Virus record (IMG/VR): IMGVR_UViG_2785510761_000002
DNA: 64,000 nucleotides
Direction: 5' to 3' (one strand)
Source of the DNA: a virus
Lineage: Duplodnaviria > Heunggongvirae > Uroviricota > Caudoviricetes
Positions 7,007 through 60,725 of the stretch are shown piece by piece. The notes below the pieces were generated by a model. That model ran no database searches. It worked only from the letters and a program-made list of their open reading frames with translations, and was not told the origin of the DNA. A program made the translations under genes and the position numbers. The number at the start of each line of letters is the position of its first letter. The first letter of the stretch is position 1.

Positions 7007-7627
7007 CTAGAAGTCGAGCTCACCGGGCTGCGGGGTCGGGTTCTGACCCTGCGGAACCTGCGGCTGGGCAACCTGCTGAGGTGCCTGCTGCATCTGCGGC
7101 TGCGGTGCCTGCTGCATCTGCGGCTGCGGTGCCTGCTGCATCTGCGGCTGGGCGACCTGCTGCTGAGGTGCCTGCTGCATCTGGTTCACGGGCTGAGCGG
7201 GTGCCTGAGGCTGGCTCTGCTGAGCCACCTGAGCAGCCGGGTGAGCGTTCTGCTGCGCGGGGGCGCTTTTCTGGAACGCCGCCGTGCCGAAGCGCAGCGA
7301 GATCGCGATGTCTTCTGCCGTGATCACCTGCTTTGAGCGGTTCCCGCCGGTAGCCGTGTCCACCCAGGTCTGGGTTTCGATACGGCCGGTGACCGTGACG
7401 CGCATGCCCTTCTTCAGGCTGAGGTTCGCGTGCTGTGCGAGGTCACGGAAACCCTGCACCTCGAATCGGTTCGTCACGCCGTCCACGAACTTCTGCTGCT
7501 GCTTATCGAAGTGCTGAGGCGTGCTCAGCACGACGAGATTCGAGATGGCAACACCCTGTACGGAGACGAAGGGCTTGGGATCCTCTGCGAGGTTTCCCGT
7601 GATAGTGATGTTGGTTTCGCCAGCCAT
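7007..7627 (-). CDS. ssb: single-stranded DNA-binding protein
   Basis: N-terminal OB-fold similar to SSB (ITGNLAEDPKPF...RFEVQGFRDLAQHA...GMRVTVTGRIETQTW). Q/P-rich tail of imperfect repeats ending in the acidic tip GELDF. Confidence 0.85.
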   Translation of the reverse strand: MAGETNITITGNLAEDPKPFVSVQGVAISNLVVLSTPQHFDKQQQKFVDGVTNRFEVQGFRDLAQHANLSLKKGMRVTVTGRIETQTWVDTATGGNRSKQVITAEDIAISLRFGTAAFQKSAPAQQNAHPAAQVAQQSQPQAPAQPVNQMQQAPQQQVAQPQMQQAPQPQMQQAPQPQMQQAPQQVAQPQVPQGQNPTPQPGELDF

Positions 7628-7720: not shown

Positions 7721-8857
7721 CTACGCAGCCACCCGGTTCCCGCCGAGGTTCAGCAGTAGCGTTTGCACCTTGGAGCGGAACGCGTTGCGGCGGGCTCGTG
7801 GAATCTTGGGTGCTGCTGGGCAAGTGTGCTGAACGCCAGACCTGGTGACCCGGCGGCACTTCTGGCAGCGATCCACCTGGACACGTTCCGCCCGGTTCTT
7901 CACCAGCTCGTTGTACGCACGGCCAGGGGACCCAGAGCGCAGAATCTCCTCGTACACCTGACGCGGCACCTCGTACGAGTAGGTCCGGCTGCCCTTCATA
8001 GTGAGTGTCATGGTGTTCGTAGCCCGCTCGAACCCGACCCCCTTGATGAATGAGGGCACGGCCGGTGCCTGCATCTGAGCCCCAGCACGGGCCACGCGAT
8101 CGATCTGCAGTTGCTGAAGGGCGCTCTTGCCCTCGACCACCGTCACAGCTTCACCGCGTGCACGTGCTTCCTGGTTTGCGCGGCGAACATTGGCGAAGTG
8201 CAACTCTGCGTCCTTGAGCGCCAGCGACGGACGTCGTGCCTCGAGTACGCAGGCAACAGACTCTGCAGCGCGGTTCTTGGACACGTGATCAGGGAATCCG
8301 AGAGCCTGCACGTCCCATGCGCCGCCGGCCCCTTCGGTCACGCGAACGTACCCGGAGATCCGGCCGCCGCCGTGCTCCATCTCGATCGGCAGGTCAAACG
8401 TCTGTCGTTTGTTCTCCTTGGAGAATCGACGAATCGCTGTGGCGCTCGGCATGCGCAGGTTTACTCCTGCACCGTGGTAGTTCATACGGTGGGTTCGACG
8501 ATGGCCACTAAGGGCGTGCCCATCAGTCATGCCTGGAGTGTAATCGTCGGGCATGATCTTGTATGCGTGGTGCCCTTCGGGCTGCTGCTCCATCCGCTCA
8601 TAGTGCTGCTGCCACCACACATCGATTCCTTCGGTGAAGCTCGGGTTCGTCGCTGACTCCACTGTCGAGGCGTGCGCGTACCCGACGCGCTCAAGCTGCG
8701 CGATGATTGCCTTGCGCTGCTCGGCTGCGTCACCCATGCCTGCGTACACAGGGGGAGGGCCACCTGCGCTGCGGTTGTGGGAGGCGTAGCTTCCTCCGGA
8801 TCCACCCCGGGCAGTCTTCCCGAGTCCAAGGTCTGCGCGTCGCGTCTGGTTTGTCAT
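7721..8857 (-). CDS. leader-family protein 1: conserved N-terminal leader (MTNQTRRADLGLGKTARGGSGGSYASHNR..PPP) plus a unique C-terminal region with a C-terminal CxxC..C..P cluster
   Basis: Shares the roughly 40-aa N-terminal motif with 10 other ORFs in the window. Upstream motif GCCGCACGTAATCGTCGAC-ATG. Confidence 0.7.
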   Translation of the reverse strand: MTNQTRRADLGLGKTARGGSGGSYASHNRSAGGPPPVYAGMGDAAEQRKAIIAQLERVGYAHASTVESATNPSFTEGIDVWWQQHYERMEQQPEGHHAYKIMPDDYTPGMTDGHALSGHRRTHRMNYHGAGVNLRMPSATAIRRFSKENKRQTFDLPIEMEHGGGRISGYVRVTEGAGGAWDVQALGFPDHVSKNRAAESVACVLEARRPSLALKDAELHFANVRRANQEARARGEAVTVVEGKSALQQLQIDRVARAGAQMQAPAVPSFIKGVGFERATNTMTLTMKGSRTYSYEVPRQVYEEILRSGSPGRAYNELVKNRAERVQVDRCQKCRRVTRSGVQHTCPAAPKIPRARRNAFRSKVQTLLLNLGGNRVAA

Positions 8858-9029
8858 GTCGACGATTACGTGCGGCTGTTGGGTCAGCGGCGGTTCGGTG
8901 AAACTGCGCTATGCAGTGCAGTGTCGCCCCACGGTTGGCTCCGCTCGATATTCGAGGGCTCAACGAGCTCCAAAACCGACGCTCATACCTAGAGGGGGTA
9001 TGCAGGGTACCCCAGTGGGGTATATGTTG

Positions 9030-9330
9030 TCAGTTTTGCCCGGGTTTGGGCGTGTTTTGCCCGGGTTGCTCGCCCGCTTGCTCGGGCTACTTCCCTTACG
9101 GGAGTAAGGCTCTCCCGGTTTGCACGGTTTTTCTGGAAATCTGCCTCCCCTATAGACAGTGAGTAACTGTTTCACCGGTTTTGAGGTTCTGCATCTATCT
9201 ATCTATTTCTCTAATAAGAGATAAATAGATATAAACCCGAGTAAACCGGGAGAGCCCTACTCTCGTAAGGGATGCAGCCCGAGCACGAACCCGGTTTTGC
9301 CCGGGCAAGGCCGAGTAAAACCGGGCAAAC
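9030..9330. repeat. iteron-like direct and inverted repeats flanking an AT-rich core (candidate origin)
   Basis: The 13-mer TTTTGCCCGGGTT occurs three times direct and once inverted. A longer inverted pair, TTACGGGAGTAAGGCTCTCCCGGTTTGC / GTAAACCGGGAGAGCCCTACTCTCGTAAGG, brackets the AT-rich palindromic core TCTATCTATCTATTTCTCTAATAAGAGATAAATAGATATAAA. The region is non-coding in all six frames in a 70% GC context. Confidence 0.4.
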
Positions 9331-9977
9331 GGCGAAACCATGCCATTTTCGAGGCTCACACCCCGGTCGCCGGCCCGAGGAGGGTACTTGCGCGCAAACG
9401 GTGCTCCCGCAGCCGATCCCAAGCGCCTGCGTAGAGGCGCCCCGAAAACGGGTGCGGGGCCGGGAAACGAGCGTCCAGGGCCGTTTCCGGCCGCGTTCAA
9501 CCTCTATCGGCGCCCCGAGGACGCGCAGTGCTCCTGAAATCGGCTGAATCGTGGTCGTTATGCACGCGCGCCTACGCGCGTACGCGGGCGCGCGCCCGAC
9601 CGGGGGAAACACTCGCGATTGGACGAAAATCTGAAATGCAGTGTGCGCTCCGTCATGCTGTGAGTTGAGACGCTAGATACCTCGAAAGAGCCGCATACCC
9701 CCACCCCTCAGCAAAAAATGGTTGCTGCGACCTGTCACAGGTTTGTCACGGTAGGCTCAGTCGAGCGTTCCCTCGCCTACCGTGCGGTTTGAGCATTCAC
9801 CTTGCAGAGGATGGGCGCCTTCAATTCGCTTCACTGGTGCTGGCGATTACGCTGCGGCAGTAACAAGCATTCTCACACTGGCGGGTCGGCTTCTCGTCAG
9901 CCGGAGGCATTGATCCGTGTGATCCCGGCTTGCATGTCGTTGAGGGTAAACGAGGCGTGCCGCGCATAAGAGTGTGC

Positions 9978-10739
9978 ATGAAGTCTGCTTCCAAGCTTGG
10001 CGTCTCAGCAATCGTGCTCATCGTGCTGGCCGGATTCCTCATGGCCACGAACATGTGGGATCCGTCTGTCGTCTCATTCACGAGGCACGTGGTGGGCGAC
10101 AAAGCCGCGAGTGCTCTCGACACCACCGCCCGCGGCAGTGTCGATGCATCCAAAAAGTGGGTCGATGAAGCCAAGGATATGACCCTGGAGGATCTGGTTC
10201 AGAAGGCCCGGGAACTTCCTGCCCCAGAGATTCGGAGGATCCCAAAGTACGACCGCGAGGCGCAGTTCGGAACCTGGGTGAACAACGACCTCGGATGCAG
10301 CACCAGACAGATGATCCTCGCGCGGGATCTGGACAATGCTCAGCTCGACGAAGACGACTGCACTGTCCTCTCAGGAACGCTGACCACTGACCCGTATAGC
10401 GGGAAACAGATCGACTTCATCAGCGACCGCGCCGGCGGTGACTCACGAGCGGTGCAGACGGAAACGATCGTTCCGCCTTCCGTCGCTTGGAGGTCCGGAG
10501 CATCTACCTGGACTCAGGAGCAGCGCGCAGCGTTCATGAACGACCCGGACAACCTCATCTCCGTAGGTGAGAAGTCAAGGGCTGACAGGAGCGACAAAGC
10601 GCCGGATCGGTGGATGCCTGCGAACAAGAGCTATGGCTGTTCCTTCGCTGAGGCGTACACAAATGTCACGGTGAAGTACGGACTCTCGCTGGACACGAAG
10701 ACCAGGAACTTCCTCGTAGAGACGTTGGCGCAGTGCTAG
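9978..10739 (+). CDS. hypothetical secreted or membrane-anchored protein
   Basis: Start taken at the internal ATG (MKSASKLGVSAIVLIVLAGFLMATNMW) giving a signal/TM helix. GCCGCGCATAAGAGTGTGC-ATG start-associated motif upstream. Confidence 0.5.
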   Translation: MKSASKLGVSAIVLIVLAGFLMATNMWDPSVVSFTRHVVGDKAASALDTTARGSVDASKKWVDEAKDMTLEDLVQKARELPAPEIRRIPKYDREAQFGTWVNNDLGCSTRQMILARDLDNAQLDEDDCTVLSGTLTTDPYSGKQIDFISDRAGGDSRAVQTETIVPPSVAWRSGASTWTQEQRAAFMNDPDNLISVGEKSRADRSDKAPDRWMPANKSYGCSFAEAYTNVTVKYGLSLDTKTRNFLVETLAQC

Positions 10740-12845: not shown

Positions 12846-12998
12846 GAGGCAATCATGAGTTGGCTGAAAGAAGCGTTCACCCCAGACCCTGATGAAGTTG
12901 ATCAAGTCACAGGCCTGTTCACGAGCAAGCGCGGGCTGATCGCGATCGGTGTGCTGCTCGTCGCGATTGTTGTCGGCAGCGTTCTGGCGTTCATCTGA
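12846..12998 (+). CDS. small membrane protein (50 aa)
   Basis: RBS GGAGG 7 nt upstream. Single TM helix (LIAIGVLLVAIVVGSVLAFI). Stop overlaps the start of the next gene (TGATG). Confidence 0.4.
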   Translation, partial: EAIMSWLKEAFTPDPDEVDQVTGLFTSKRGLIAIGVLLVAIVVGSVLAFI

Positions 12999-13621
12999 TG
13001 CGCGGGCAGGTGATCGGCACCGCTGGAGGCGGCCTAACCGGAGATGACTCGTGGGCAAACGCATCGCGCGGAGCTCAGGAGGCGGGCCGTGTAGCAGAGG
13101 TTCAGGTGGGCAACACCCTCTCACGGGTAGCCGAGCGTGGCCCTGCGGTGCTGCATGACCTTCGCATCCCCATTCCCGGTTTCACCGCGAACGTCGACCA
13201 CGTCATCGTGCATGGAAGCCGGGTCATCGTGATCGACTCGAAAGCGTGGGCCGCTGGTCGATATTGGACATTCAGGGGACGAACCCGCATCGGTTTTCGT
13301 CTGCTGGCGCCGAAGCGAGATTCAAAAGACGCGGTACGCACGCTTATTGGACAGCATGCACCTCACTGTGACAAGAAGACGATCCCCACCGCGGTATCCG
13401 CGATGAAACGGTACCTCGAGCAGCAGGGAATCGACGCACAGTTCGACCGCCCCATGCTGGCGATCTGGCAGGACCGGCAGACAAGTTTTGCGGGGTACAG
13501 GCCACAGGGTGACCCGGCTGTTGTCGTCGGGAAAAACCTGGGCAGGTGGATGCGGCGAAAAGTAAAGCCGCATCCCGCCGACCCGGCCATCATCCACGCA
13601 CTCGCACAGCTAGTGAACTAG
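12998..13621 (+). CDS. NERD-domain (nuclease-related) protein
   Basis: NERD-like core VLHDLRIPIPGF...NVDHVIVHGSRVIVIDSKAWAAGRYW. Confidence 0.6.
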   Translation: MRGQVIGTAGGGLTGDDSWANASRGAQEAGRVAEVQVGNTLSRVAERGPAVLHDLRIPIPGFTANVDHVIVHGSRVIVIDSKAWAAGRYWTFRGRTRIGFRLLAPKRDSKDAVRTLIGQHAPHCDKKTIPTAVSAMKRYLEQQGIDAQFDRPMLAIWQDRQTSFAGYRPQGDPAVVVGKNLGRWMRRKVKPHPADPAIIHALAQLVN

Positions 13622-13631
13622 GAGCAGCACC

Positions 13632-16600
13632 TTGGCAACGTCGAAGCAGATCGAGCAGCCGCCTCCCTACACCGTAATCACCTTGGTTGTGACCGTGGCG
13701 CTATGTGCTGTCGCCCTGTTCCTGCAGTGGCCGGCGGCCGTGATCGCGCTCGTGGGAATTCTGGTGGCAGCTTCTCTGAGTCGCAGCCCTCAGCTCACGG
13801 GGCCAAAAGACCCGCAGACCCAGTACCCGACAGTGGGGAATCCGGGGGAGCAGCAAGCACTGAACCGTCACCGATTCTGGCGCACAGTTCCTGGGAAGCT
13901 CCTATCCTGCGGTCCCTTCTGGCCGCTGACCACAAACATGCTGGCAGCAATTGGCGTTGGGTGCATCGCGTTCACTCTTCCGTACGAGGGCGCCGGAAAA
14001 CTCCTGCAGCTCATTGATGGTGTCGGAGCTCTGCCGTTTCTCCCATGGATCAACGGCGTCTTCTCCACTCTGCTCGTAGCTGGCTTCGGGGCAGCTCTGC
14101 GATCGAAGGATCCGGAGAACGGCCCAATGCCGCCCACTGACCTCGCAACGCTCTTAACGCAGTCAACATCGCGTGACCCAAAAACGTTTGCCCTGCTTGT
14201 GCTCGCCGTGAGCGGTGCACTGCTCACCGGGCTGGGGACCTCATGGTGGATCGCGGCGGCGGACTGGTACCTCATTTTCCCGGGAGGAGTCGCAGGTGCC
14301 GGGGCCGCCCTCATCGTGTTCGCACTTGTCACGCATGCGGCTACCGTCACGGAAACCCGGCGCCCATGGCTAGAAGCCTGCGAAGCTCGGGCCACATGGG
14401 CCGCACGATGGCCCTCGATGCCTAAGCTCAAGGAGTTCCCGCAGCTCACCAGTCACCGGAGGCTTGGAGCCAGCGATGAGGTGTGGATTGACGAGTTCCA
14501 GGCCCCAGCGATGCAGGGTGCGAAGTTCTGGATCGACAAGCCAGTTCCTGAGGGTATTGAACCGCTCATGCCTGCCAACACAATGGTGGCCTTCCTGTCC
14601 GTTCCTGACGTAGCCGGTGACGGCAACCCCATCACCTTGAGCAGAAGCGCAACGAAGTTCCGTGTCATCACCTGGAATGGCGATCATCCGCTCGACGTCA
14701 CCGACCCGAAGGTAGACCGTGAGCTCCTCAGCGTCTGGTTCGACCTGAAGGTGAGCGCAAGCTGTGCCGCGGCATGGGGGTCAATGTTCTCGCTCATTCC
14801 ACTGCACGCGCCAGAAGCACTGCACGTCGAGAAGGATGAGTGGATTGGCACCGAGACCGGTGCCTGGAAGATCGAGTACGGGGTGACCCAGGGAGTGAAC
14901 CTCCCCAGCTCAATGGCTGAGTGCGTGTCCAGCGCACAGCTTGCTTTGGGGCAGGAGATCGAAGTGCTGCCCATCGGCACATCCATGTTCATCGGCGCTA
15001 TCACCGCGGAAACCACCCAGCTCGAAGACGATTCGATTCTCGAGCAGCTTGCCTCAGAGCAGGAGATGCAGGCGTGGGAGAAGCGCTGGAAAGACATCAC
15101 CGGGCCAGGAATGCAGGCGCCGGCATACTTCCCCGAGCACGACGGTCAAGAGGAACTCGATTCGCGTACCGTGATATTCAGCCGTCTGTTCGGTGCTCCC
15201 GCAGGACTGTCAGCGAAGGACTACTTTGCGAAAGCCACCCCGGATCGCATCCAGAGCGGGCTGAAAGGCGCGTCCTGGTCCACAGCTTCGTTCTACGTGG
15301 ACCCGCACTCGAAGAAGCGTTACCCGCACCTCATGCAGATCATGTGGTCTGAGCAGCAGATCCCACTGAACCCTGCACGAATCGCACCGACAGATAGCGC
15401 TCGGGCTGCGACCTGGGCGATCACCGGAGCGATCAACGCTGCGTTCCTTGGAGCGAAAATGCAGCGCCCTGAGGTGATGAGCGTGAAGCCGCTCACCAGC
15501 CGGCAATCGCGTGGCCACATCTGGGAGGTAACACTTGCGCTCCTTGATGGAATGACGATGGCTGACGTTCGCAAGAACCAGCAGAAGCTCATGGCTGCCC
15601 TTGAAGGCTGCGAATGGTTGCGCGTCGGCGCCAGCACCCGTGGATGCCGGATCCTGTTCGGTGCGATGCCCTCATCTCGCCGCACTTGGGCGAACAAGGA
15701 CGCGGAAACCTCTGCGCGCAAGCTCGACTGGGAGCAGCATTTCATCGACTCGAAGATCAAGAACGCCCGCGAGGAGACGCCAGAGCTGCTAGACGTTGCT
15801 CCGCTTCCAAAGAACGACCTCGTGCGTGAGTACCGATTCAAGATGCCCGCCGGCCTGGCGATCGGCGACGTGAAGAAAGAGTCCGGGAAGCTCCAGAGCA
15901 CGACCGGGAACGGATTCCTCGATATCCGTCAGGGAGCAACGCCCGCGGAGATGATCATTCAGGCGGCAGAGGAAAGCCCCATGCCGAACCTTGCATTCTT
16001 CAACTGGGACGAAGTGGACGAAAGCAAAGCCGTGCCATTCGCCACCAACATTCAAGGTGAGCCGATGGCATGGGACCCGCTCACGGATCCGCACGTAGTC
16101 CTTCTGGGCGCCACCGGCTCGGGCAAGTCGGCCGCGATTCAGTCATTCCTTACCCCGGCTGCAATTCAAGGGTATGAACTGCACATTTTCGATAAGCCCA
16201 AGGGGGCTGCCGACTTCCAGTACCTGGTGCCGTTCTCCAAGCAGGTTGCGACCGAATACGTGACCATCGCCGCAGCGCTCGAGAACGTCTACAAGGAGGT
16301 TGAGCGCCGCAAGGAGTTGAACCAGCAGTATGGAGCTTCTCGCGTGCGAAACCTCCCCGACGAGGTGCGTCCTCCTCACATGATCGTGGTGATCGATGAG
16401 TTCACTTCCACCATCAAGCCAGAGCTGCTCGACAAAATCACGGGAGACGAGACCGAGGATCAGCTGCGAGAGCGCGAATTCAATGTGCGCACGAACCAGT
16501 ACAAGGGGCGGATCGGTGCGGCTGTTGGAAAGATCATGCGAGAGGCGCGCTCCGCGGGCGTTTCGATGCTCGTGGCCGGCCAGACACTCTCAGCCGACGA

Positions 16601-17372
16601 GATGAAGGCAAGCCCCGCTCTCGGCAACATCAAAAACCAGGCGGCGATGATCCTTCTGGGCAAGGCCTCGTTTGGCCAGCGTGCGTCAGCGTTCAAAAAT
16701 GTGGAGCTTGCTCCTGAACTGGGCGAGAACGTGCCAAAGGGCCGCGGCATCTTTGAAAGCTCAGAAGGCGCTCCGACAATGTTCCAGGCCTGGTACGGGG
16801 CCGACTTCGCAGAGTTCGAGACAGGACCGGAAGCAGAAGCTGCGCACCTCCGGAACATGGTCGACCACATCAGCGCAGCCCGCGACCCAGAGGCGGATCA
16901 ACTGTTCGATGATGACCTCCGCCCAGATGAGTCGGAGATCCGTGCGTTCGGGGAGATCATCCAGCCAGACGCGGCAGAGGATTTCGAGGACGAGGTGATT
17001 GACATGGGGGAGATCGACCTGGAAATCAGCTTCGATGAATTTGACCTCGGCGACGCTGCACAGGATACGACTTCCACTGTGGGGGATGCCCAACTTGAAA
17101 CAGCAGTGACCGCGCTCGAAACGGCCGTGGATCACAATCTCGAGCCTGAGCCTGAGCCGGAGCCTCAGTGGGAGTCCGATATGGTCGTGGAGCCCATCAC
17201 GGAGCCTTCCTCACCCGAGGTGAGTATTGAACAAGCGAACCAGCCTCAGACCATGGATCCAGCAACCGAAGGGGCTCGAGAGCCAGGCGAGCCCGGAGGT
17301 GAAGGTGCCGACGGTATGTTCACCAGAAAGCAATTCTCCAGACCCTCAATGGCCGATGATCTGTTCAAGTAA
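13632..17372 (+). CDS. FtsK/SpoIIIE-family membrane ATPase (DNA-translocase-like; TraB/TraSA- or EccC-like)
   Basis: 1246 aa (TTG start). Four or more N-terminal TM helices. Walker A VLLGATGSGKS, Walker B MIVVIDEF, LVAGQTL. Long acidic low-complexity C-terminus. Confidence 0.75.
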   Translation: MATSKQIEQPPPYTVITLVVTVALCAVALFLQWPAAVIALVGILVAASLSRSPQLTGPKDPQTQYPTVGNPGEQQALNRHRFWRTVPGKLLSCGPFWPLTTNMLAAIGVGCIAFTLPYEGAGKLLQLIDGVGALPFLPWINGVFSTLLVAGFGAALRSKDPENGPMPPTDLATLLTQSTSRDPKTFALLVLAVSGALLTGLGTSWWIAAADWYLIFPGGVAGAGAALIVFALVTHAATVTETRRPWLEACEARATWAARWPSMPKLKEFPQLTSHRRLGASDEVWIDEFQAPAMQGAKFWIDKPVPEGIEPLMPANTMVAFLSVPDVAGDGNPITLSRSATKFRVITWNGDHPLDVTDPKVDRELLSVWFDLKVSASCAAAWGSMFSLIPLHAPEALHVEKDEWIGTETGAWKIEYGVTQGVNLPSSMAECVSSAQLALGQEIEVLPIGTSMFIGAITAETTQLEDDSILEQLASEQEMQAWEKRWKDITGPGMQAPAYFPEHDGQEELDSRTVIFSRLFGAPAGLSAKDYFAKATPDRIQSGLKGASWSTASFYVDPHSKKRYPHLMQIMWSEQQIPLNPARIAPTDSARAATWAITGAINAAFLGAKMQRPEVMSVKPLTSRQSRGHIWEVTLALLDGMTMADVRKNQQKLMAALEGCEWLRVGASTRGCRILFGAMPSSRRTWANKDAETSARKLDWEQHFIDSKIKNAREETPELLDVAPLPKNDLVREYRFKMPAGLAIGDVKKESGKLQSTTGNGFLDIRQGATPAEMIIQAAEESPMPNLAFFNWDEVDESKAVPFATNIQGEPMAWDPLTDPHVVLLGATGSGKSAAIQSFLTPAAIQGYELHIFDKPKGAADFQYLVPFSKQVATEYVTIAAALENVYKEVERRKELNQQYGASRVRNLPDEVRPPHMIVVIDEFTSTIKPELLDKITGDETEDQLREREFNVRTNQYKGRIGAAVGKIMREARSAGVSMLVAGQTLSADEMKASPALGNIKNQAAMILLGKASFGQRASAFKNVELAPELGENVPKGRGIFESSEGAPTMFQAWYGADFAEFETGPEAEAAHLRNMVDHISAARDPEADQLFDDDLRPDESEIRAFGEIIQPDAAEDFEDEVIDMGEIDLEISFDEFDLGDAAQDTTSTVGDAQLETAVTALETAVDHNLEPEPEPEPQWESDMVVEPITEPSSPEVSIEQANQPQTMDPATEGAREPGEPGGEGADGMFTRKQFSRPSMADDLFK

Positions 17373-27163: not shown

Positions 27164-28083
27164 AGTACGCCCTCCGTCCTTCTAAGATTCTCTCTGAGTT
27201 GATTCTTGATGTTGCAAACTTCCTGTTCACCGTACAACGAGTTGTCGTAGGTTTCGACGAGAATGCGCAGCGCTTTCTCGTCCGCTTCAAGCAATGGCTT
27301 GCGGTGCCCATATTGCTCTCGAGCGAACACAGCAAATGATCGGGCTTGAGCCTCAAGCGCATCCTCTCCGAGGAGCTCCTGCTCCTCCTGGGGAGGGAAA
27401 GCCATCCCGAAATCGAACGGCGGCATGGCCCGGTATGACCCGTCTGCCTGCTCGATCACCCCGATGTTGCTGAGGTTGTTGATGCGGTCGGTGTTCCCGA
27501 TGATCAGGTCGAAGGCTGACATTCGGAGGACATCCTCGCTCAGGCTTGCGCCCGTGGAGGAGTTCATTGTCTCGATCTGGCCCTTGAGCCGCTTCCAGTC
27601 GTCGTTCTCAATGAAGAACTCCTCGTCAGAGTCCCAGTCTTCGTCCTCTTCAACGAATTCGTCCGATCGAAAATACGAGAGCTGCCGTTCGCGCTCTCCG
27701 ACGCTCTTGAAGTTGTGGGATTCGACACCGATCAGCAGGTTGCCGTCTGCGTCTCGGAAATGCTTAGCGTCATACTGCACGGCGTTTTCGAGGCCCATGG
27801 CGAGTGCTGCTCGCCCGGGGAACTCCTCGCGAATGGCCTCGTCGTGCATGGCATCGAGCTTGATGTACGTGTCGCGGTACGGGTCGTAGAACTTCTGCGT
27901 TGATCCACCCATGACACGTGATGTCGAGTCTTCAGCTACGAGCGCGCTGAGCTCACGCACCTCCCTGACTCCGGCATTCACCGGTGGAGCAGCGATATCT
28001 CGTTCGTGTGCAGCGAAGCTTCCGCCGCTGCCGCCTGCTGCGGTTCTCCCGAGTCCGATGTCTTTCCTGCGCGATGTGCTCAC
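27124..28083 (-). CDS. leader-family protein 2 (GTG start: VSTSRRKDIGLGRTAAGGSGGSFAAHERD..PP)
   Basis: Start set at the GTG preceded by GCCGCGCGTAATCATTCAG. The conserved leader is followed by a unique 280-aa region. Confidence 0.65.
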   Translation of the reverse strand: MSTSRRKDIGLGRTAAGGSGGSFAAHERDIAAPPVNAGVREVRELSALVAEDSTSRVMGGSTQKFYDPYRDTYIKLDAMHDEAIREEFPGRAALAMGLENAVQYDAKHFRDADGNLLIGVESHNFKSVGERERQLSYFRSDEFVEEDEDWDSDEEFFIENDDWKRLKGQIETMNSSTGASLSEDVLRMSAFDLIIGNTDRINNLSNIGVIEQADGSYRAMPPFDFGMAFPPQEEQELLGEDALEAQARSFAVFAREQYGHRKPLLEADEKALRILVETYDNSLYGEQEVCNIKNQLRENLRRTEGVLWRRKSPSVTGAL

Positions 28084-28199
28084 CTGAATGATTACGCGCG
28101 GCATCGGGTGGAGATGTTGGACCCCCGCCGTGGACGGCTGCTGCAGGCTGCCGTAGGACGTTGTACACACGTCACTTAGGGATTCGAACCCCAGTCCAG

Positions 28200-28271
28200 T
28201 GCGCCTCCCTGGAATCGAGCCAGGGGCCTCCGTCTTATCAGGACGGCGCTCTACCGCTGAGCTAGAGGCGC
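28200..28271 (-). tRNA. tRNA-Ile(GAT)
   Basis: Acceptor GCGCCTC/GAGGCGC, anticodon loop CTGATAA. An orphan T-arm plus acceptor fragment (GGGGTTCGAATCCCTAAGTGAC) lies immediately 3', a tRNA remnant. Confidence 0.8.
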
Positions 28272-28345
28272 ATGCCACTGATTCGTTGACACTGGTTCAG
28301 TGACCAAAACCTTGAGAGGCCGACTTCCGGTAGGTAGTCGGCTCG

Positions 28346-28429
28346 TGGCCCTCCCGGGGCTCGAACCCGGACGCTCTTTCGAGCACCGGCTTTTGAGGCC
28401 GGAATGTCTACCATTTCCAACAGAGAGCC
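28346..28429 (-). tRNA. tRNA-Leu(CAA)
   Basis: Type II. Anticodon arm CCGGC-CTCAAAA-GCCGG. Variable-arm hairpin GCTC-GAAA-GAGC. Confidence 0.8.
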
Positions 28430-28601
28430 AGGTGGCTGCTGCCGAGGACTTGAACCCCACCTCCCGGTATTCGCTCGGGCGCGCTTATCGCGGATCGCCA
28501 ACCCGTCATGACCTGGGAGTGCGATGTGCTCACAGTTGCCACGCTCGCCCCCGAAAGTGCACGCAGGGGAGTCACGTTCTTCCGATTGCGCCAAACAGCA
28601 G

Positions 28602-28674
28602 TGCGCCCGCCAGGGTTCGAACCTGGGGCCTACGGATTAAGAGTCCGCAGCTCTACCAACTGAGCTACAGGCGC
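28602..28674 (-). tRNA. tRNA-Lys(CTT)
   Basis: Acceptor GCGCCTG/CGGGCGC, anticodon loop CTCTTAA. Confidence 0.85.
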
Positions 28675-28839
28675 CGAGGGAGCTTGCATCCCATCCGCCG
28701 GCCTCACACCGACTTTTCCGAGTTTCACGGTCCTGTCCAGGCACTGCCTATGCAGCTCCGGAGCACCATCGTCAAGTGTTAGCCTGCCAACCTCGACGCT
28801 CCGCCACGGGCTCTCACCGTGGGTGATGCTCGATCCTCG

Positions 28840-28913
28840 TGGCCATCCTGGGACTCGAACCCAGAACCTTCTGATCCTAAATCAGACGCCTCTGCCAATT
28901 GGGCTAGACGGCC
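28840..28913 (-). tRNA. tRNA with anticodon TAG (Leu-decoding anticodon on a type-I, short-variable-arm scaffold)
   Basis: Acceptor GGCCGTC/GATGGCC, perfect anticodon stem TCTGA/TCAGA, loop TTTAGGA, T-arm CTGGG-TTCGAGT-CCCAG, 5-nt variable loop. Confidence 0.5.
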
Positions 28914-29266
28914 GGGTCCCGCACAATTTTGCAGCCGTGACAGCACCTATCCGCGGTGTGCCGTCCGTGCCTCATCTCCCACACCAGACTGCCTGGACTC
29001 ATGAACCCTGGCGCTATAGCTAACCAGGGTGGCGCGGTACGGGGGCGCGCGTAGGGAAGGGTGGTCCGGCTGCCTCCAGTATGAGACGCAACGCAACGTT
29101 TCGCATCACCGAACGCGGTATTGCACGCCTCAAAGGACGGGAGCCGGAAAAGTGTGTGTCTGCCGCGAGGGAATCTCCGCAGACCCTCGGCCTGCACGGT
29201 GGCGGGTTCCGAGGCTAGCCGCGCATGACGCGGCCGATACAACCCGAGCCGCTGGCTCGGATGTGG

Positions 29267-29341
29267 TCGGGACGACAGGATTTGAACCTGCGACTTCACG
29301 CTCCCAAAGCGCGCGCTCTAGCCAAGCTGAGCTACGTCCCG
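29267..29341 (-). tRNA. tRNA-Pro(TGG)
   Basis: C1:G72 acceptor CGGGACG/CGTCCCG as in bacterial tRNA-Pro. Anticodon loop TTTGGGA. Confidence 0.8.
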
Positions 29342-29669
29342 GTATTGCTGATTTCGGCCTATCCTAGACAGCGACCTTTGAGGTCACTTCACATGCACGG
29401 CTTAGCGAGGCTCAGCAGGGCCTGCCGCGTTTGTTCGGACAGTGTTGCGGCTGAGAGAAGAGGTTGACGAAAGGAATGATCGCGCTCTGCCGTTGAGCTA
29501 CGGAGCCTTACGGCACCGGCGGGATTTGAACCCGCATCTCGTCTTTGCAAATAGAAGTAACTCTCGTCTTCGCACCTCAGCCACGTAAGGGAGAACACCC
29601 GCCACCCGCGGAGCCGCACGCTCGAGTCGTACGGCAGCAATACCGGAGTTGAGCCGGCGCAGTTCTCTG

Positions 29670-29755
29670 TGGGCCTGGCAGGAGTCGAACCTGCGATGTG
29701 TCTAAACTGTGGCCGATTTACAGTCGGCTGCCTTCGCCACTCGGCGCACAGGCCC
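29670..29755 (-). tRNA. tRNA-Tyr(GTA)
   Basis: Acceptor GGGCCTG/CAGGCCC, anticodon arm GCCGA-CTGTAAA-TCGGC, long variable arm. Confidence 0.75.
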
Positions 29756-29834
29756 AAAGCCCGCGAATGCGGGCCCTGCCCACGTCGAAACGTGGACTAA
29801 TTCACAATCTCTATGGAGTTTTCAAGGTGCTTTG

Positions 29835-29907
29835 CGGGGCTGGCAGGGCTCGAACCTGCGACCACCGGTTTTGGAGACCGGTGCTCTACCAACTGAGCTA
29901 CATCCCC
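29835..29907 (-). tRNA. tRNA-Trp(CCA)
   Basis: Anticodon loop CTCCAAA, T-loop TTCGAGC. Confidence 0.8.
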
Positions 29908-30193
29908 AGATGCTCTTTCGAGCCGTTCGCATACTGAATGCGCGGTGTTTGGCGGGAAGGTTATCCGCCGAAAAGAGAATAAGCCCGGGACCGAATTTCG
30001 GTGCGCGGGCTTCGAGAGAAGATTGGGCCTAGATCGAGGCCGGTTTACCCGCAGGTGGAGGCGAATACAGATTATGGGTATGCGAGAGCCACTGCTGTGT
30101 GCTCAAACTGCGTCCCATGATTGTCTCCTGCTATTCGGATGTACCAACACTACACTTCACATCGAAAATAATTCAAGTTTTCATGTTGTTTCG

Positions 30194-30264
30194 CTGCCCC
30201 GTCAGGATTCGAACCTGAGCTTTCAGCTCCAAAGGCTGTCGTGCTGCCGTTACACTACGGGGCA
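30194..30264 (-). tRNA. tRNA-Gln(TTG)
   Basis: U1:A72 acceptor TGCCCCG/CGGGGCA, Gln-type D-arm, anticodon loop CTTTGGA. Confidence 0.75.
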
Positions 30265-36454: not shown

Positions 36455-36651
36455 CGAACTCTCTTTCTGTGTATGTCCCGCGCACGGGGAACGTGCCATG
36501 GGAATGCGCGGGGGTGCCGGGCGACGGCCACCCCACTCATTACGAGCGGGGGTTGAGACGTGAGTTCAACCAGGTCAATACAGCCCACGAGCGCACCGGC
36601 TCAGGGAGGTGCAAAACCCAAAAACTAGCCCCACCGCGCATTCAGGGGCTA

Positions 36652-37854
36652 ATGAATACGAGCACCATTCTCCGCGGAGACGCGTTGGAGTACCTCCGGG
36701 ATCTTCCCGATAACTCCGTCGACTCCATTTGCACTGATCCGCCATACGGCCTGTCTAGTACTAGCTCTCAGCAGGTGACCGAGACGCTCAGCCGTTGGCT
36801 TGACGGAGAGCGTGATTTTGTGCCGCAGGCTCGGGGCTTCATGGGCCGCAGTTGGGATGCCTTCGTTCCTCCTCCAGCCGTATGGGACGAGTGTTTGCGC
36901 GTGCTAAAGCCGGGTGGCCATATTGCAGTGTTCGCCGGCGCACGCACCCAAGACCTCATGGGCATGTCAGTGAGGCTGGCCGGGTTTGAGATGCGCGACG
37001 GCCTCGGCTGGGCAAGATCAGGCGGCATGCCGAAGACCCAGGATCTTGGGAAGCAGATGGCGAAAGCCGGGATCGAGGGATCGGAGAAGTTCGCCGGATG
37101 GAGCGCCGGGCTCAAGCCTGCCATCGAACCGATCCTGTTGGGGCGTAAGCCGTTCAAGGGGTCATTGACCCTTAACGCCGCGGACCACGGTACGGGCGCA
37201 CTGAACATCGATGCAACCCGAATCGTTCACCGCTCAGAGGCTGATCGGGCGGAGTCTGAAGGCAAGAACCGTCACGCGCAGTACGGCACCGCTCCAGGGC
37301 GCAATGACGTGTTCGGTGACTACTCCATGATCAAGTCGAAAGACTACGACGGCGCTCAGGGTCGTTGGCCCTCAAACCTGATCATCGACGACATTCAAGC
37401 TGAGCTGCTTGACCGCCAGTCTGGCACTTCAAGGAGCCGGAAGGGGGAGCCTCGGCGGTCGGCCGAACCTGGAAACGGGTGGGGGGCCACCAAGACCGGT
37501 GCGGAGTACGACGACGAGGGTGGAGCGTCCAGATTCTTCCTGGTCACCGACCGGCTGGACAACCTCGAGACCAGGCTGATTTTCGCCCCTCGGGCCAATG
37601 CCGCTGAGCGTCCGGTGGTCAATGGTGTCCAGCACAGCACGGTGAAGCCTCTGAGCCTCATGAGGTATCTCGCGAAGCTCATCACTCCGAATGGCGGCGT
37701 GATTCTTGAGCCGTTCGCAGGGTCAGGAACCACCGTCGAAGCCGCGCTGCTCGAGGGTTTCAGAGTTGTCGCGATCGAGCGTGAGCCGGACTACTGGCCG
37801 CTCATCGAGCAGCGCGTGCAGCGAGCGGCCGCAGGCATAGAGGTGGCCGCGTGA
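36652..37854 (+). CDS. DNA methyltransferase, beta-class amino-MTase (N4-cytosine or N6-adenine)
   Basis: Motif IV DPPYG near the N-terminus and motif I EPFAGSGTT near the C-terminus (circularly permuted beta class). Start at internal ATG MNTSTILRGD. No adjacent restriction endonuclease seen. Confidence 0.8.
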   Translation: MNTSTILRGDALEYLRDLPDNSVDSICTDPPYGLSSTSSQQVTETLSRWLDGERDFVPQARGFMGRSWDAFVPPPAVWDECLRVLKPGGHIAVFAGARTQDLMGMSVRLAGFEMRDGLGWARSGGMPKTQDLGKQMAKAGIEGSEKFAGWSAGLKPAIEPILLGRKPFKGSLTLNAADHGTGALNIDATRIVHRSEADRAESEGKNRHAQYGTAPGRNDVFGDYSMIKSKDYDGAQGRWPSNLIIDDIQAELLDRQSGTSRSRKGEPRRSAEPGNGWGATKTGAEYDDEGGASRFFLVTDRLDNLETRLIFAPRANAAERPVVNGVQHSTVKPLSLMRYLAKLITPNGGVILEPFAGSGTTVEAALLEGFRVVAIEREPDYWPLIEQRVQRAAAGIEVAA

Positions 37855-38369
37855 AAGGCATGGCTGGTCATCAAAGTGCCCAAGCAGACACCACGACTTG
37901 GCTTACCCCTCCCGACATCATCGCCGACCTTGGGCCGTTCGGGCTCGATCCGTGCGCGGCGCCGGAGCCGAGACCATGGCCGACAGCCGACCGGCACATT
38001 GTGCTTCCTGAGGATGGACTTGAAGCTCACTGGGGAAGCGAGATGGTGTGGTGTAACCCACCATACGGTCGTGAGACCTGGGCATGGCTGGAGAAGCTCG
38101 CAGCACACCCCGCGGGTGGGATCGCTCTGATCTTTGCCCGCACGGAGACGGCCGGGTTTGTTGATCAGGTCTGGCAGCGCGCTGATGCGTTGTTTTTCAT
38201 CCACGGGCGCCTGCATTTTTATCGGGCTAACGGTGAGCGCGCTTCTGCTAACTCCGGAGCACCGTCTGTGCTCGTGGCATATGGTGCCGCGGCTGCTGCG
38301 CGGCTGCGCCGGACGCAGTTACCCGGCAGTTTCGTGCACTTGAAGCGGCGCGGGTCAGCGGCGGCATGA
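37851..38369 (+). CDS. phage-type DNA N6-adenine methyltransferase (Dam_phage-like)
   Basis: WCNPPYG motif. Small 172-aa size typical of phage Dam. Confidence 0.7.
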   Translation: MKGMAGHQSAQADTTTWLTPPDIIADLGPFGLDPCAAPEPRPWPTADRHIVLPEDGLEAHWGSEMVWCNPPYGRETWAWLEKLAAHPAGGIALIFARTETAGFVDQVWQRADALFFIHGRLHFYRANGERASANSGAPSVLVAYGAAAAARLRRTQLPGSFVHLKRRGSAAA

Positions 38370-60038: not shown

Positions 60039-60614
60039 TTACTCCGAGATCAGTTTTGCGTTCGCCAGGTCTGCCTCGGTCTGCTGCGTGCCTGCGGCAT
60101 TGACCAGCAGGTACAGGTCGGCCTCCTCGGCGATGGTGCCGACCGCTGTCTCAATCACCGGCAGCAGGGCGCGGTTCGTGAACAGGCGCTGACCGGTGGG
60201 TGTGAGCTGCTGGTAGGTCACGTACAGTCCGTCGTCAGTCACGGTTGTGTCAGCCACCTGCTCTGCGGGGAACCAGCTCGCCGGCACGGGAAGCAATCCA
60301 TCGAACCAGGCGATTGCCGTCTCGATCCGCTGTTTCCCGTCGATGACTCCGTAGAGGTGATTACCGAGAGGAAACCCGTCAACTGCTTTCGGCCATGGCG
60401 GCGCCAGACGGTCATTGATGATCACAGCCGGGATTGGCATTCCGATCAGCCATGAGCGGATCAGCCCGATGCGCTGATCGTCAGTCCACACGGATCCCCG
60501 CTGGTATGCAGGCGAGAGGTCTCCTGCCGCCAAGAGGCGTGCCACCTCGCGCGCTGACCGGTTTGAAGCGGTAAGTGTTTGGTGGGTGATGGGGTGCGCG
60601 GTCTGTCGAGTCAT
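60039..60614 (-). CDS. DUF262 (ParB/GmrSD-N-like) domain protein
   Basis: DGKQRIETAIAWF matches the DGQQR motif of DUF262. Confidence 0.6.
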   Translation of the reverse strand: MTRQTAHPITHQTLTASNRSAREVARLLAAGDLSPAYQRGSVWTDDQRIGLIRSWLIGMPIPAVIINDRLAPPWPKAVDGFPLGNHLYGVIDGKQRIETAIAWFDGLLPVPASWFPAEQVADTTVTDDGLYVTYQQLTPTGQRLFTNRALLPVIETAVGTIAEEADLYLLVNAAGTQQTEADLANAKLISE

Positions 60615-60679
60615 GATGTCCTCTCTGGCGCGGGTGCCGCGCTCCCCGTTTCAATGCGCGGGATGCCGGAGACAGAGAA

Positions 60680-60712
60680 GAGCACCCCGACTCTCAGCCG
60701 GGGTGCTCTTCG
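60680..60712 (-). terminator. Rho-independent terminator candidate
   Basis: Hairpin GAGCACCCCGG-ctgagagt-CGGGGTGCTC just downstream of the LRR gene stop. Confidence 0.45.
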
Positions 60713-60725
60713 ACCTCTCCGCCCG

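Follow-up and report, generated by a model that had tools for sequence, protein, structure and literature searches.

A conserved non-coding module at the junction of two divergent conjugation operons in a Leucobacter luti plasmid-like element, and its possible role as a transfer origin

Origins of transfer commonly lie at the head of, or between, transfer operons, and the proteins of known relaxosomes autoregulate. Several described systems invite comparison with the locus treated here. The Enterococcus faecalis pheromone plasmids pAD1 and pAM373, which have the MOBC relaxase TraX, reportedly carry an oriT2 made of a conserved inverted repeat of ~140 bp and plasmid-specific short repeats. The clt loci of Streptomyces plasmids are said to be recognized by the FtsK-like protein TraB. 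In the leading regions of F-like plasmids, Frpo lies upstream of an ssb-containing operon. Transfer origins in general have been described as inverted repeats combined with an AT-rich tract (PMC5587640), and MOBC relaxases as PD-(D/E)XK-like (PMC5714925). In the bifidobacterial conjugative megaplasmid pMP7017, RepB is the proven initiator, and the iteron-type origin comprises RepB, 20-mer iterons, and an AT-rich region; a second locus, that of the non-essential RepA, has eight repeats and is divergent from the FtsK gene (PMC8313286).

The region described here lies on a 163-kb contig of Leucobacter luti (SNYA01000009.1), of which the stretch analyzed, called the window in what follows, covers 64 kb. 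It represents a plasmid-like element that encodes a type IV secretion system (T4SS); the element is probably ~160–220 kb long, and its type IV secretion operon is probably conjugative. As the initial annotation had recognized, the region is placed between a minus-strand operon on the left and a plus-strand operon on the right. The left operon encodes the KTSC protein, SSB, an HNH protein, a lysozyme/M23 cell-wall hydrolase, and a VirB4-like AAA_10 ATPase; the right one encodes a GmrSD_C protein, SNF2, NERD, and a FtsK/SpoIIIE ATPase that is related to those of Arthrobacter, Curtobacterium, and Clostridium perfringens (pCW3-type) plasmids. The NERD and FtsK/SpoIIIE pair (12998–17372) is conserved in Micrococcales megaplasmids. 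NCBI places the start of the KTSC gene at 8749. At the DNA level, the region has no match among plasmids or phages; the flank from 1 to 20 kb has none among phages, and tRNA genes are the sole matches of the flank from 1 to 25 kb to plasmids.

The interval had been described as non-coding, with only short ORFs in a context of about 70% GC. The source records call no gene between 8858 and 9977, and none of the ORFs inside it has a homologue in any related locus. However, the ORFs are not all short, since the longest reach up to 133 aa (9211–9612, minus strand; uncalled by the gene callers of the source records), and the GC content around the region is 0.58–0.63 (local value ~0.60). No Rfam family matches 8700–10100 at E≤1, and an Rfam gathering scan of the window returned only tRNAs and tmRNA. 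The features of the interval and its neighbors are collected in Table 1.

Table 1. Coordinates of the features in and around the non-coding interval (positions in the 64-kb window)
Feature	Position	Strand	Description
SSB gene	7007–7627	-	second in its operon
KTSC protein gene	7721–8857	-	378 aa; orphan N-terminal fold, KTSC domain, zinc ribbon; adjoins the module in 6/6 elements
Non-coding interval	8858–9977	none	between the KTSC-SSB-T4SS operon (left, minus) and the GmrSD_C-SNF2-NERD-FtsK operon (right, plus), divergent
Overlapping GGGGTA/TACCCC dyads	8994–9023	none	GGGGGTA-TGCAG-GGTACCCC-AG-TGGGGTAT; between the big palindrome and the KTSC gene
Iteron-like 14-mer, two exact copies	9033–9046, 9054–9067	+	GTTTTGCCCGGGTT; spacing 21 bp
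Quasi-palindrome	9043–9339	none	~295-nt imperfect hairpin as ssDNA; potential cruciform in duplex
Inverted repeat, left arm	9079–9131		53 nt; 87% complementary to 9233–9285
Conserved site, copy 1	9093–9109	-	CCCTTAC-GGGA-GTAAGG; minus strand reads GCCTTACTCCCGTAAGGGAA
C-run and TATAGA box	9144–9156	+	CCTCCCCTATAGA; read in the sequence
AT-rich core	9179–9238	none	(TATC)n microsatellite and palindrome with 15-nt arms, 9196–9231
Inverted repeat, right arm	9233–9285		53 nt; 87% complementary to 9079–9131
Conserved site, copy 2, inverted	9255–9271	+	CCCTACTCTCGTAAGGG; 161 bp from copy 1
14-mer, degenerate direct copy	9294–9307		12/14 match; outer right arm
14-mer, inverted copy	9317–9331		outer right arm
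GC-only palindrome	9562–9598	none	perfect core CGGGCGCGCGCCCG at 9585–9598
TGTCAC hexamers, two	9733–9738, 9744–9749	+	11 bp apart
GmrSD_C-type nuclease gene	9978–10739	+	N-terminal membrane anchor; opens the right-hand operon
NERD nuclease gene	12998–13621	+	3 kb from the module; directly upstream of the FtsK-type ATPase gene
FtsK/SpoIIIE-family ATPase gene	13632–17372	+	1246 aa; presumed coupling protein

Most of the anatomy first read from this DNA stands, with some corrections. The long inverted pair is real and larger than had been claimed: its 53-nt arms are the longest in the window (within 800 bp; the runner-up has 26 nt), and with gaps allowed the arms extend over 98 columns at 74.5% identity, 9033–9131 versus 9233–9340. 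When 9020–9345 is folded as single-stranded DNA, the free energy is -85 kcal/mol, versus -43 ± 3.7 for shuffled sequences, which corresponds to z = -11.4 for the plus strand and -9.7 for the minus strand. The AT-rich palindromic core (arms 9196–9210 and 9217–9231) lies in the 60-mer with the lowest GC content of the 64 kb, 0.28; its center, at 9213.5, is off that of the large repeat, at 9182. The near-palindromic module is present in a single copy within the 64 kb. The short repeat had been reported as a 13-mer in three direct copies and one inverted copy; two direct copies are exact and the inverted one is present, but the third direct copy is imperfect. With up to three mismatches allowed, the 14-mer has 10 matches in the whole window, 6 of them within 9033–9331, while shuffles gave 4.0 ± 2.1 and none reached 10. 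Both the overlapping dyads and the GC-only near-palindrome were located. The dyads are a candidate operator or promoter element. Two TGTCAC repeats exist, but they lie ~230 bp upstream of the gene at 9978 and not just upstream of it, as had been stated.

The same layout is found in five other elements (L003, L004, L006, L007, and L112), with KTSC protein identities of 42–55%. In these relatives, a long non-coding gap lies directly upstream of the KTSC gene, with SSB next in the operon, and the shared arrangement consists of element-specific short repeats mirrored around a C-run followed by an AT-rich microsatellite core, together with a conserved site, CCYTAC-N4-GTAAGGG. The cores are built of (TATC)n, (TTA)n, (TAC)n, or (AT)n. 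The counterparts of the C-run/TATAGA box are CCCCATATAGAG in L007, CCCCCACTGTATAGAG in L006, CCCCC...TCTATAGAG in L112, and CCCCCTTAT in L003 and L004, and in all five relatives the box lies on the other side of the AT core from its place in the window. The fold z-scores are -14.7 for L112, whose arms have 50 nt at 96%, -7.6 for L007, and -5.2 for L006. The distal part of L112 contains CGGGCGCGCGCGCCCGACC twice, as a counterpart of the GC palindrome. On its far side, the module is bordered by a different gene in different elements (GmrSD_C, DnaE, an HA-domain protein, or a methylase), and the T4SS operon side is constant. Four of the six elements have the FtsK gene more than 8 kb from the module or out of range. 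An extra 401-aa gene of L006 has left no remnant in the window.

The short repeats are common to the window and to L034 (76% identity), in which the 14-mer family reads CCGGGCAAAAAC / CCGTGCAAAACC with a spacing of 22 bp, and they are different in the relatives at or below 55% identity. Such element specificity is as expected for the specificity sites of an element-encoded protein. A counterpart of the dyads, TATACCCCCCAGGGGGTA, occurs at the same place in L034, and the contig L035 begins with GGGGTATAGGG.

A second class of sequence behaves in the opposite way. The 21-mer GCCTTACTCCCGTAAGGGAA is identical at 21 of 21 positions between Leucobacter luti and a Lysinibacter element, amid DNA that is otherwise unalignable. 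The conserved site, GCCYTACTCCCGTAAGGGA, was found in four of the six elements, always with the same polarity relative to the core, from which it points away in every case. Its center (TCCC) is non-palindromic, and both center and polarity are kept. The window and L007 have two copies each, and the spacing is 161 bp in both. Exact matches to the pattern of the conserved 17-mer were also seen in metagenome contigs (66) and viral contigs (7); none lies beside a KTSC homologue, and so we regard them as chance matches. A scan of viral contigs with the KTSC alignment gave one distant locus, without the module, and a scan of genome contigs with a single KTSC protein as query gave no match. The gap upstream of the Glaciihabitans NERD-FtsK operon holds no comparable module.

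Taken together, these observations support the view of a non-coding module of the cis type that is conserved among the elements and lies where two divergent conjugation operons meet. What would its function be? Both where it lies and how it is built would fit an origin or a bidirectional control region. We tentatively propose, with a probability of roughly 0.4, that ~9033–9340 is a cis-acting oriT that overlaps the divergent control region of the two conjugation operons. This proposal is based on the position between the two operons, the unique inverted repeat with its AT core, and the hairpin z-score; it is based also on a layout that is conserved without sequence conservation, on the ultra-conserved site, on the element-specific repeats, and on the constancy of the T4SS side. 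The generic anatomy of an oriT, inverted repeats with an AT-rich tract at the head of or inside a transfer cluster, is present, and the position is kept in the five relatives.

Several observations count against the oriT. The two inverted copies of the conserved site would give two possible nick sites on opposite strands. In L003 and L004 the global hairpin potential is not significant (z = -1.6). At 25 more distant KTSC loci no such module occurs within ±6 kb, and a mere ~37 bp separate the two genes of the same divergent GmrSD_C/KTSC pair in Pseudoclavibacter. Nine of nine megaplasmids in PLSDB with KTSC and FtsK homologues are typed as non-mobilizable. Searches of the window and of the 9.7 kb left of it (L102) with Pfam, NCBIfam, and PHROGs found no relaxase of any known family, and no nick-site consensus was found in the module. 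The possibility of a Rep or relaxase gene elsewhere on the element had been raised; none was found in the 74 kb read, nor was a Par gene. Since neither a relaxase, nor a Rep protein, nor a nick site was found, a vegetative origin and a purely regulatory region remain live rivals. Thus, the original suggestion of a replication or transfer origin is upheld in part, namely as regards a conserved non-coding cis-type module with fitting position and anatomy.

Among the known systems, pAD1/pAM373 oriT2, as it is reported, would offer an analogous architecture: a large inverted repeat shared among relatives is combined with element-specific short repeats, inside the transfer gene cluster and beside the coupling-protein operon. 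By analogy, a non-HUH relaxase may be a further common trait, for which the candidate here would be the NERD nuclease, of the PD-(D/E)XK superfamily. However, there is no sequence similarity to oriT2, the short repeats of the module are mirrored on both arms and do not form one direct array, an AT-rich microsatellite core occupies the center, and no TraX homologue was identified here. Like pMP7017, the L. luti element is an actinobacterial megaplasmid with a tRNA array, a tmRNA, and an FtsK-family ATPase, and its repeat-rich non-coding region, with repeats and an AT-rich tract, is divergent from the FtsK block. It differs in that the KTSC protein is unrelated to RepA and RepB, in that the arrays are mirrored whereas the pMP7017 iterons are mostly direct 20-mers, and in that no PF04796 Rep protein was found on Leucobacter contigs. 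As in clt loci, repeats of 8–10 bp that are element-specific are contained within a few hundred bp of non-coding DNA, and an FtsK-family translocase is encoded; the window repeat has ACCCGG, as does the pSVH1 TraB recognition sequence GACCCGGA. In contrast to the clt systems, VirB4 and the rest of a complete T4SS-type operon are present on the element, and the module is linked to the KTSC/T4SS operon and not to the FtsK gene.

Two short likenesses to classical nic regions were found after comparison with the oriT sequences of pSK41 and R388, which were checked against the plasmid records. The 11-mer CCCTTACGGGA, inside the conserved site, is shared with pSK41 (pSK41/pGO1 oriT; MOBQ, Nes); the nic core AAGTGCGCCCT, which follows a hairpin in the MOBQ oriTs (pSK41/RSF1010), is absent, and there is no MOBQ relaxase. 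The 9-mer TGTCTATAG of the nic core of IncW R388 (MOBF, TrwC) occurs on the minus strand at 9149–9157, beside a small hairpin; in R388, the IR2 hairpin is followed after 8 nt by GTCT/ATAG. However, the relatives carry CTCTATAG, CTCTATAT, or CTCTATAC in place of this 9-mer, which is not conserved; the distance from hairpin to nic differs, and there is neither a TrwC domain nor a MOBF relaxase. Both matches are short and were found post hoc, and we consider them coincidental.

If the module is an oriT, its working could be pictured as follows. Element-encoded DNA-binding proteins would occupy the element-specific repeats on both arms, which in the window are GTTTTGCCCGGGTT, with a spacing of about two turns of the helix; the obvious candidate for binding these short repeats is the KTSC/zinc-ribbon protein encoded next to them, and a more conserved protein would recognize the site GCCYTACTCCCGTAAGGGA. 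The AT-rich microsatellite core beside the C-run would then melt, or the near-palindrome would be extruded under negative supercoiling, and the opened core or extruded palindrome would expose single-stranded DNA for strand-specific nicking. The strand would be exported by the FtsK-family ATPase and the VirB4 system, and the SSB whose gene lies two genes away would cover the DNA strand that is transferred or displaced. It is tempting to propose that the same bound proteins autoregulate both divergent operons.

A vegetative origin is a doubtful alternative. In such an oriV, an element-encoded initiator would bind the mirrored iteron-like repeats and the AT core would melt, with bidirectional replication supported by the element's own SSB (and DnaE in relatives). 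The AT-rich unwinding element of an iteron-type origin is present in the form of the most AT-rich 60-mer of the window, and the flanking repeats are phased by 21–22 bp. A GC cluster lies beside an AT-rich low-complexity tract in six of six elements; SSB is a neighbor in every case, DnaE is directly divergent in L007 and not far away in L006, L008, and L009, and the window and L006 have an adjacent SNF2 helicase. The repeats of L004 resemble the actinobacterial DnaA box, with 7.1 hits/kb versus 1.8/kb locus-wide, and the function tolerates a flipped orientation. Searches for RepA (PF04796) found no member on Leucobacter or Lysinibacter contigs, but they were word-seeded and could miss a divergent Rep. 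Against an oriV, the adjacent genes include neither Rep nor Par, RepA and RepB of pMP7017 are not similar to the KTSC protein, and KTSC homologues in 25 other elements have no non-coding or AT-rich region beside them. Related megaplasmids use a RepA and iteron module elsewhere: the Glaciihabitans plasmid, a distant relative, has a canonical RepA and iteron origin 17 kb from its KTSC gene. DnaA-box-like motifs are enriched only in L004 and L003, and not in the window, L006, or L007; the DnaA box TTGTCCACA, with up to 2 mismatches, has one hit in the region, which is below background. Lastly, GC skew had been suggested as a check for a replication origin, and the cumulative minimum of the window is at ~36 kb and not at ~9.2 kb; the skew follows the direction of transcription. 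This check is weak because the window is 64 kb of a 163-kb contig. Iteron-type theta origins have a direct array of three or more similar repeats of 17–22 bp, phased at ~22 bp; on this point the repeats here, two exact 14-mers at 21 bp and two degenerate ones arranged as a mirror and not as a direct array, weigh neither for nor against an oriV.

Pure transcriptional control is likewise unlikely as a full account. The module would consist of divergent promoters repressed via the palindromes and repeats, possibly with looping over the 161 bp, and the AT core would serve as a bend or as a nucleation site for an AT-binding silencer. Both operons must start here, and in L007 the 362-bp DnaE-KTSC gap is the entire module. 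CCTTAC-N4-GTAAGG is a 16-bp palindrome of the type bound by dimeric regulators, the identical spacing of its two copies in two elements suggests a geometric constraint, and the GGGGTA dyads are kept near the KTSC start in the closest relatives. In pMP7017, the promoter of the RepA gene, which is analogous in position and divergent from the FtsK gene, contains eight repeats to which RepA itself binds (PMC8313286). However, no sigma-70-type promoter match was found in 8700–10100, and inspection by eye revealed no TANNNT hexamer in the AT core. The flipped C-run/TATAGA box indicates that the module can be inverted with respect to the KTSC gene and still function; a directional promoter would not allow this, which argues against a simple one-way promoter. 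The arms (50 nt at 96% in L112, 53 nt at 87% in the window) far exceed the needs of operator symmetry, and the non-palindromic center of the conserved site is kept, with its polarity. Control of transcription is, in addition, compatible with an oriT and not exclusive of it.

Could the hairpin act only in transferred or displaced single-stranded DNA, as a promoter or priming site (Frpo/ssi/sso-like)? It would then drive early expression of KTSC and SSB, or complementary-strand synthesis. Strong hairpin potential, with z-scores between -5 and -15 in four of the six elements, and a location directly upstream of an ssb-containing operon, like that of Frpo, are in keeping with this idea, which we nevertheless think very unlikely. 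The stem contains no -35/-10 pair and no promoter-like hexamers, no significant global hairpin is present in L003 and L004, no Rfam or known sso motif was found, and the operon to be driven is a T4SS operon and not a typical leading region. The G·T wobbles of the hairpin, two per strand, favor neither strand, which also argues against such an element.

An invertible switch is highly improbable. Here the 101-bp core between the inverted repeats would flip, redirecting a promoter or nick site between the operons; between the window and the five relatives the C-run/TATAGA box changes sides with respect to the AT core and the arms stay as they are, and three independent metagenome contigs end at the module edge. 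However, no recombinase gene is adjacent, and contig breaks are also expected at any inverted repeat longer than the assembler k-mer. The core aligns about equally well in both orientations; it is itself palindromic, hence the similar scores, and the flip rests on a motif of ~10 nt. Finally, a non-functional or selfish MITE-like insertion or a hairpin-telomere resolution site, to which the inverted termini, the length of ~300 bp, and the absence from the otherwise identical GmrSD_C/KTSC junction of Pseudoclavibacter might point, is extremely unlikely, given the single copy in 64 kb, arms that vary between elements around a conserved center (the reverse of a MITE), a location unchanged across six diverged elements, an imperfect palindrome with an off-center AT palindrome (telomere resolution sites have a perfect central one and an adjacent protelomerase), and a KTSC protein without a tyrosine-recombinase fold.

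Returning to the oriT, a bolder proposal, which we consider rather improbable, is that the module is the transfer or combined transfer/replication origin of a family of conjugative Micrococcales megaplasmids without a recognizable relaxase, and that the KTSC protein, possibly with NERD, is a new DNA-processing enzyme that recognizes GCCYTACTCCCGTAAGGGA. The orphan N-terminal fold of the KTSC protein has invariant Arg, His, Tyr, and acidic residues. Comparison of the protein with Pfam, PDB, and BFVD found nothing outside its KTSC domain; 40 family members compared with Pfam, and a sequence search of the PDB with the protein, likewise gave KTSC only. Nothing relevant was found in the literature on Leucobacter megaplasmids, NERD relaxases, or KTSC domains.

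Large actinobacterial plasmid-like elements with tRNA arrays, a tmRNA, and a T4SS are common in the Micrococcales. The nine megaplasmids that share this backbone are typed as non-mobilizable for want of a known relaxase or oriT. The module supplies a concrete fragment of ~300 bp and a 19-nt conserved site at the head of a transfer operon, and the adjacent orphan-fold protein is the first candidate for its partner. If the module is only regulatory, it is an ordinary one; if its role as an oriT is confirmed, these elements would become typable, and the fragment would be of use as a vector part in Leucobacter and related bacteria.

All the sequence features that the initial annotation listed for the 8860-9975 interval are present, small corrections aside, and its view of the interval as non-coding holds: the source record calls no gene there, the ORFs (at most 133 aa) are without counterpart in related loci, and Rfam returns nothing. 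The GC context is lower than the 70% or so it gave, at 0.58-0.65 across the window. No inverted repeat in the window is longer than the 53-nt one (87%), and a gapped alignment of its arms spans 98 columns with 74.5% identity. As single-stranded DNA, the module segment folds at -85 kcal/mol, compared with -43 +/- 3.7 in shuffles. The repeat, the fold, the 14-mer family, and the AT core all exceed chance expectation.

For six close members of a collected set of KTSC homologues, the surrounding DNA was retrieved. The module is present at five of these loci, with KTSC proteins of 42-55% identity: Leucobacter sp. cx-169 (L003), Leucobacter sp. HY1910 (L006), Lysinibacter cavernae (L007), and the loci L004 and L112. 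The sixth contig (L111) begins 10 bp before the KTSC gene and is uninformative on this point. In each of the five, a non-coding stretch of 360-1350 bp lies directly upstream of the KTSC gene, which is followed by genes for SSB, HNH, a cell-wall hydrolase, and VirB4; the 223-aa ORF called across the stretch in L112 is probably spurious. Each stretch includes an AT-rich core built from short units in tandem, (TATC)n, (TTA)n, (TAC)n or (AT)n, with four to six C in a row ahead of it. A short repeat that differs from element to element flanks the core, its orientation on one side opposite to that on the other. L004, L006, L007, and L112 have long-range inverted repeats nested in one another, the outer arms of L112 being 50 nt long, 96% identical, and 386 nt apart. 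Fold z-scores are -14.7 for L112, -12.8 for the window, -7.6 for L007, -5.2 for L006, and -1.6 for both L003 and L004. The modules can hardly be aligned save at one site, GCCYTACTCCCGTAAGGGA, which is identical at 21/21 positions between the window and L007; both have two inverted copies at a spacing of 161 bp, L003 and L112 have one each, and the polarity is always away from the AT core. The finding is genuine: a conserved DNA module of cis type.

Relative to the AT core, the C-run/TATAGA box of the window lies toward the KTSC gene, whose sense strand has it as a G-run, whereas in 5/5 relatives it is on the far side. This suggests an inversion of the core; alignment scores for core orientation do not confirm the inversion, because the core is palindromic.

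Features of the window and of related loci (L numbers denote fetched loci)
Feature	Locus	Coordinates	Strand	Remark
KTSC protein gene	window	7721-8857	-	
14-mer family	window	9033-9331		restricted to this interval
Lowest-GC 60-mer	window	9179-9238		lowest in 64 kb
RNase T-like exonuclease	window	20084-20641	-	directly downstream of tRNA array, beside TROVE/Ro60 gene
TROVE/Ro60 homologue	window	20713-22284	-	directly downstream of tRNA array
21 tRNA genes + tmRNA	window	22410-30264	-	one array; plasmid-like element
tmRNA	window	25178-25560	-	inside tRNA array; tag peptide ASYKQRDLTLAA
N6/N4 methylase and C5 cytosine methylase	window	36469-40243	+	adjacent
Lone GmrSD_N-domain gene	window	60039-60614		
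Hairpin, 26-nt arms, 3-nt loop	window	60667-60721		between two minus-strand genes; second-longest inverted repeat of window; probably a terminator
NERD-FtsK pair	window	12998-17372		kept across distant megaplasmids
NERD-FtsK pair	L002	13070-18086		
NERD-FtsK pair	L114	7419-12623		
NERD-FtsK pair	L016, L020			
Unannotated 1.6-kb gap	L002	6874-8452		pACHL01
ParA, small protein, RepA (PF04796), ~13 direct and inverted CGTCACCnnATGTACGA copies	L113	36334-40120		Glaciihabitans sp. INWT7 plasmid
DNA polymerase III alpha subunit	L006	1-3017		own copy
DNA polymerase III alpha subunit	L007	3997-7638		
DNA polymerase III alpha subunit	L008, L009			
Short repeat	window			TTTGCCCGG
Short repeat	L003			TGGCCA
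Short repeat	L004			GTGGACA
Short repeat	L006			GTGTCGG / GGTCAGG
Short repeat	L007			TGAGTCA / TGAGCC
Short repeat	L112			GTGGCC

The closest relatives are the contigs L034 and L035, with 76% and 69% protein identity; upstream of the KTSC gene, the former extends for 177 bp and the latter for 116 bp. Both the GGGGTA dyad and the window's repeat family, spaced at 22 bp, are present in the L034 segment; therefore, near relatives share the short repeats, whereas far ones have others in their place. Three independent metagenome contigs with close KTSC homologues (L034, L035, L111) break at the module's edge, as would be expected if a long inverted repeat, or two orientations of one, lay there. 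Among 25 more distant KTSC loci from Actinomycetota (+/-6 kb), there is no long upstream gap and no AT-rich segment, and two Pseudoclavibacter genomes have the same divergent GmrSD_C/KTSC pair only ~37 bp apart. So the module is a trait of one clade, bound to the start of the T4SS operon, and the KTSC gene does not depend on having it alongside. In pACHL01 of Pseudarthrobacter chlorophenolicus, the gap upstream of a VirD4-type coupling-protein gene is full of repeats such as GCCTGCGGCGGGCC, whose orientation in the left part of the gap is opposite to that in the right part; the arms measure 27-30 nt and are 350-950 nt apart. It shares mirror symmetry with the window module but has neither an AT core nor sequence similarity to it.

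The KTSC protein model is confident (pLDDT 88). Residues E90, D105, R120, R121, T122, R124, and Y127 are invariant in the N-terminal ~260 residues, and H123 nearly so; nothing in Pfam, NCBIfam, PHROGs, or the PDB resembles this confidently modelled domain, by profile or by structure. The alignment, as read here, places a CxxC...HxC zinc ribbon after the KTSC domain. The protein is therefore a plausible binder of nucleic acid; it does not belong to the known Reps or relaxases. The family is kept in Micrococcales megaplasmids and some chromosomal elements (L003-L032; PLSDB entries H25-H33).

The KTSC gene was found on NCBI contig SNYA01000009.1 (163,250 bp; assembly GCA_004362775.1, Leucobacter luti), whose final 64 kb are the window. 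On the left, conjugation genes encode a lysozyme + M23 hydrolase and, just past the window's edge, a VirB4-like AAA_10 ATPase; on the right, they encode a NERD nuclease and an FtsK/SpoIIIE ATPase of 1246 aa. The latter has ~30% identity to FtsK proteins of 150-600-kb Arthrobacter, Curtobacterium, and Glaciihabitans megaplasmids; those of pMP7017 and of Clostridium perfringens plasmids are more distant relatives. The NERD gene (PD-(D/E)XK superfamily) is always directly upstream of the long ATPase gene, and its product might be a DNA-processing partner of the coupling ATPase. The window also encodes a TROVE/Ro60 homologue, two DNA methylases, DprA, UmuC, and a flotillin. A Y RNA is the usual companion of bacterial Ro proteins; Rfam reports none in the window at its gathering threshold, and a Y-like RNA that Rfam misses may lie close to the TROVE/Ro60 gene. 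The usual GmrSD fusion appears to be split across the element, the GmrSD_C gene adjoining the module being separate from the GmrSD_N gene. At the DNA level, tRNA genes are the sole matches of the window to phage and plasmid records; a tRNA array with a tmRNA also occurs in the bifidobacterial megaplasmid pMP7017 (PMC10832533). L006, L007, L008, and L009 encode a DNA polymerase III alpha subunit of their own, often beside the KTSC gene. That of L006 has a faint Pfam match to an intein domain, and L004 also encodes ribonucleotide reductase, dUTPase, Hjc resolvase, and a sigma factor. Together with the polymerase, this is phage-like content for a conjugative element.

What, then, is the module's role? 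We rank first a transfer origin overlapping a divergent control region, tentatively and with a probability of about 0.4. Arguments for this reading are the place of the module among the conjugation genes, the pairing of a conserved site with repeats specific to each element, and the tolerated inversion. Against it, no relaxase is recognisable in 74 kb of the 163-kb contig, and 9/9 PLSDB megaplasmids with this backbone of KTSC and FtsK homologues are typed non-mobilizable. Two nic-like matches, CCCTTACGGGA to the pSK41 oriT and TGTCTATAG to the R388 oriT, were checked against the reference records; neither fits the definition of its family, and the relatives do not share the second.

A vegetative replication origin, ranked second, is unlikely. 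In its favour, the extreme AT core adjoins a GC cluster, the repeats are phased at 21-22 bp, SSB, DnaE, and helicase genes are neighbours, and L004 alone has DnaA-box-like repeats; moreover, two word-seeded RepA searches found no member on Leucobacter or Lysinibacter contigs (74 kb of the 163-kb Leucobacter luti contig were read), which keeps the idea alive. However, no Rep or Par gene is adjacent, and GC skew tracks gene orientation, with its cumulative minimum in the window at ~36 kb. Related megaplasmids, too, have a canonical RepA-iteron origin at another place: that of pMP7017 was located elsewhere by experiment (PMC8313286), and the Glaciihabitans ParA-RepA-iteron cluster, 17 kb from the KTSC gene, is by its sequence a textbook iteron origin, absent from the record's annotation. 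A purely regulatory region, third in rank, is doubtful as well, and a single-strand promoter, an invertible switch, or a selfish element are minor alternatives. Whichever role the module has, its main value is as a delimited fragment which, with a candidate protein partner, is open to testing in a poorly studied family.
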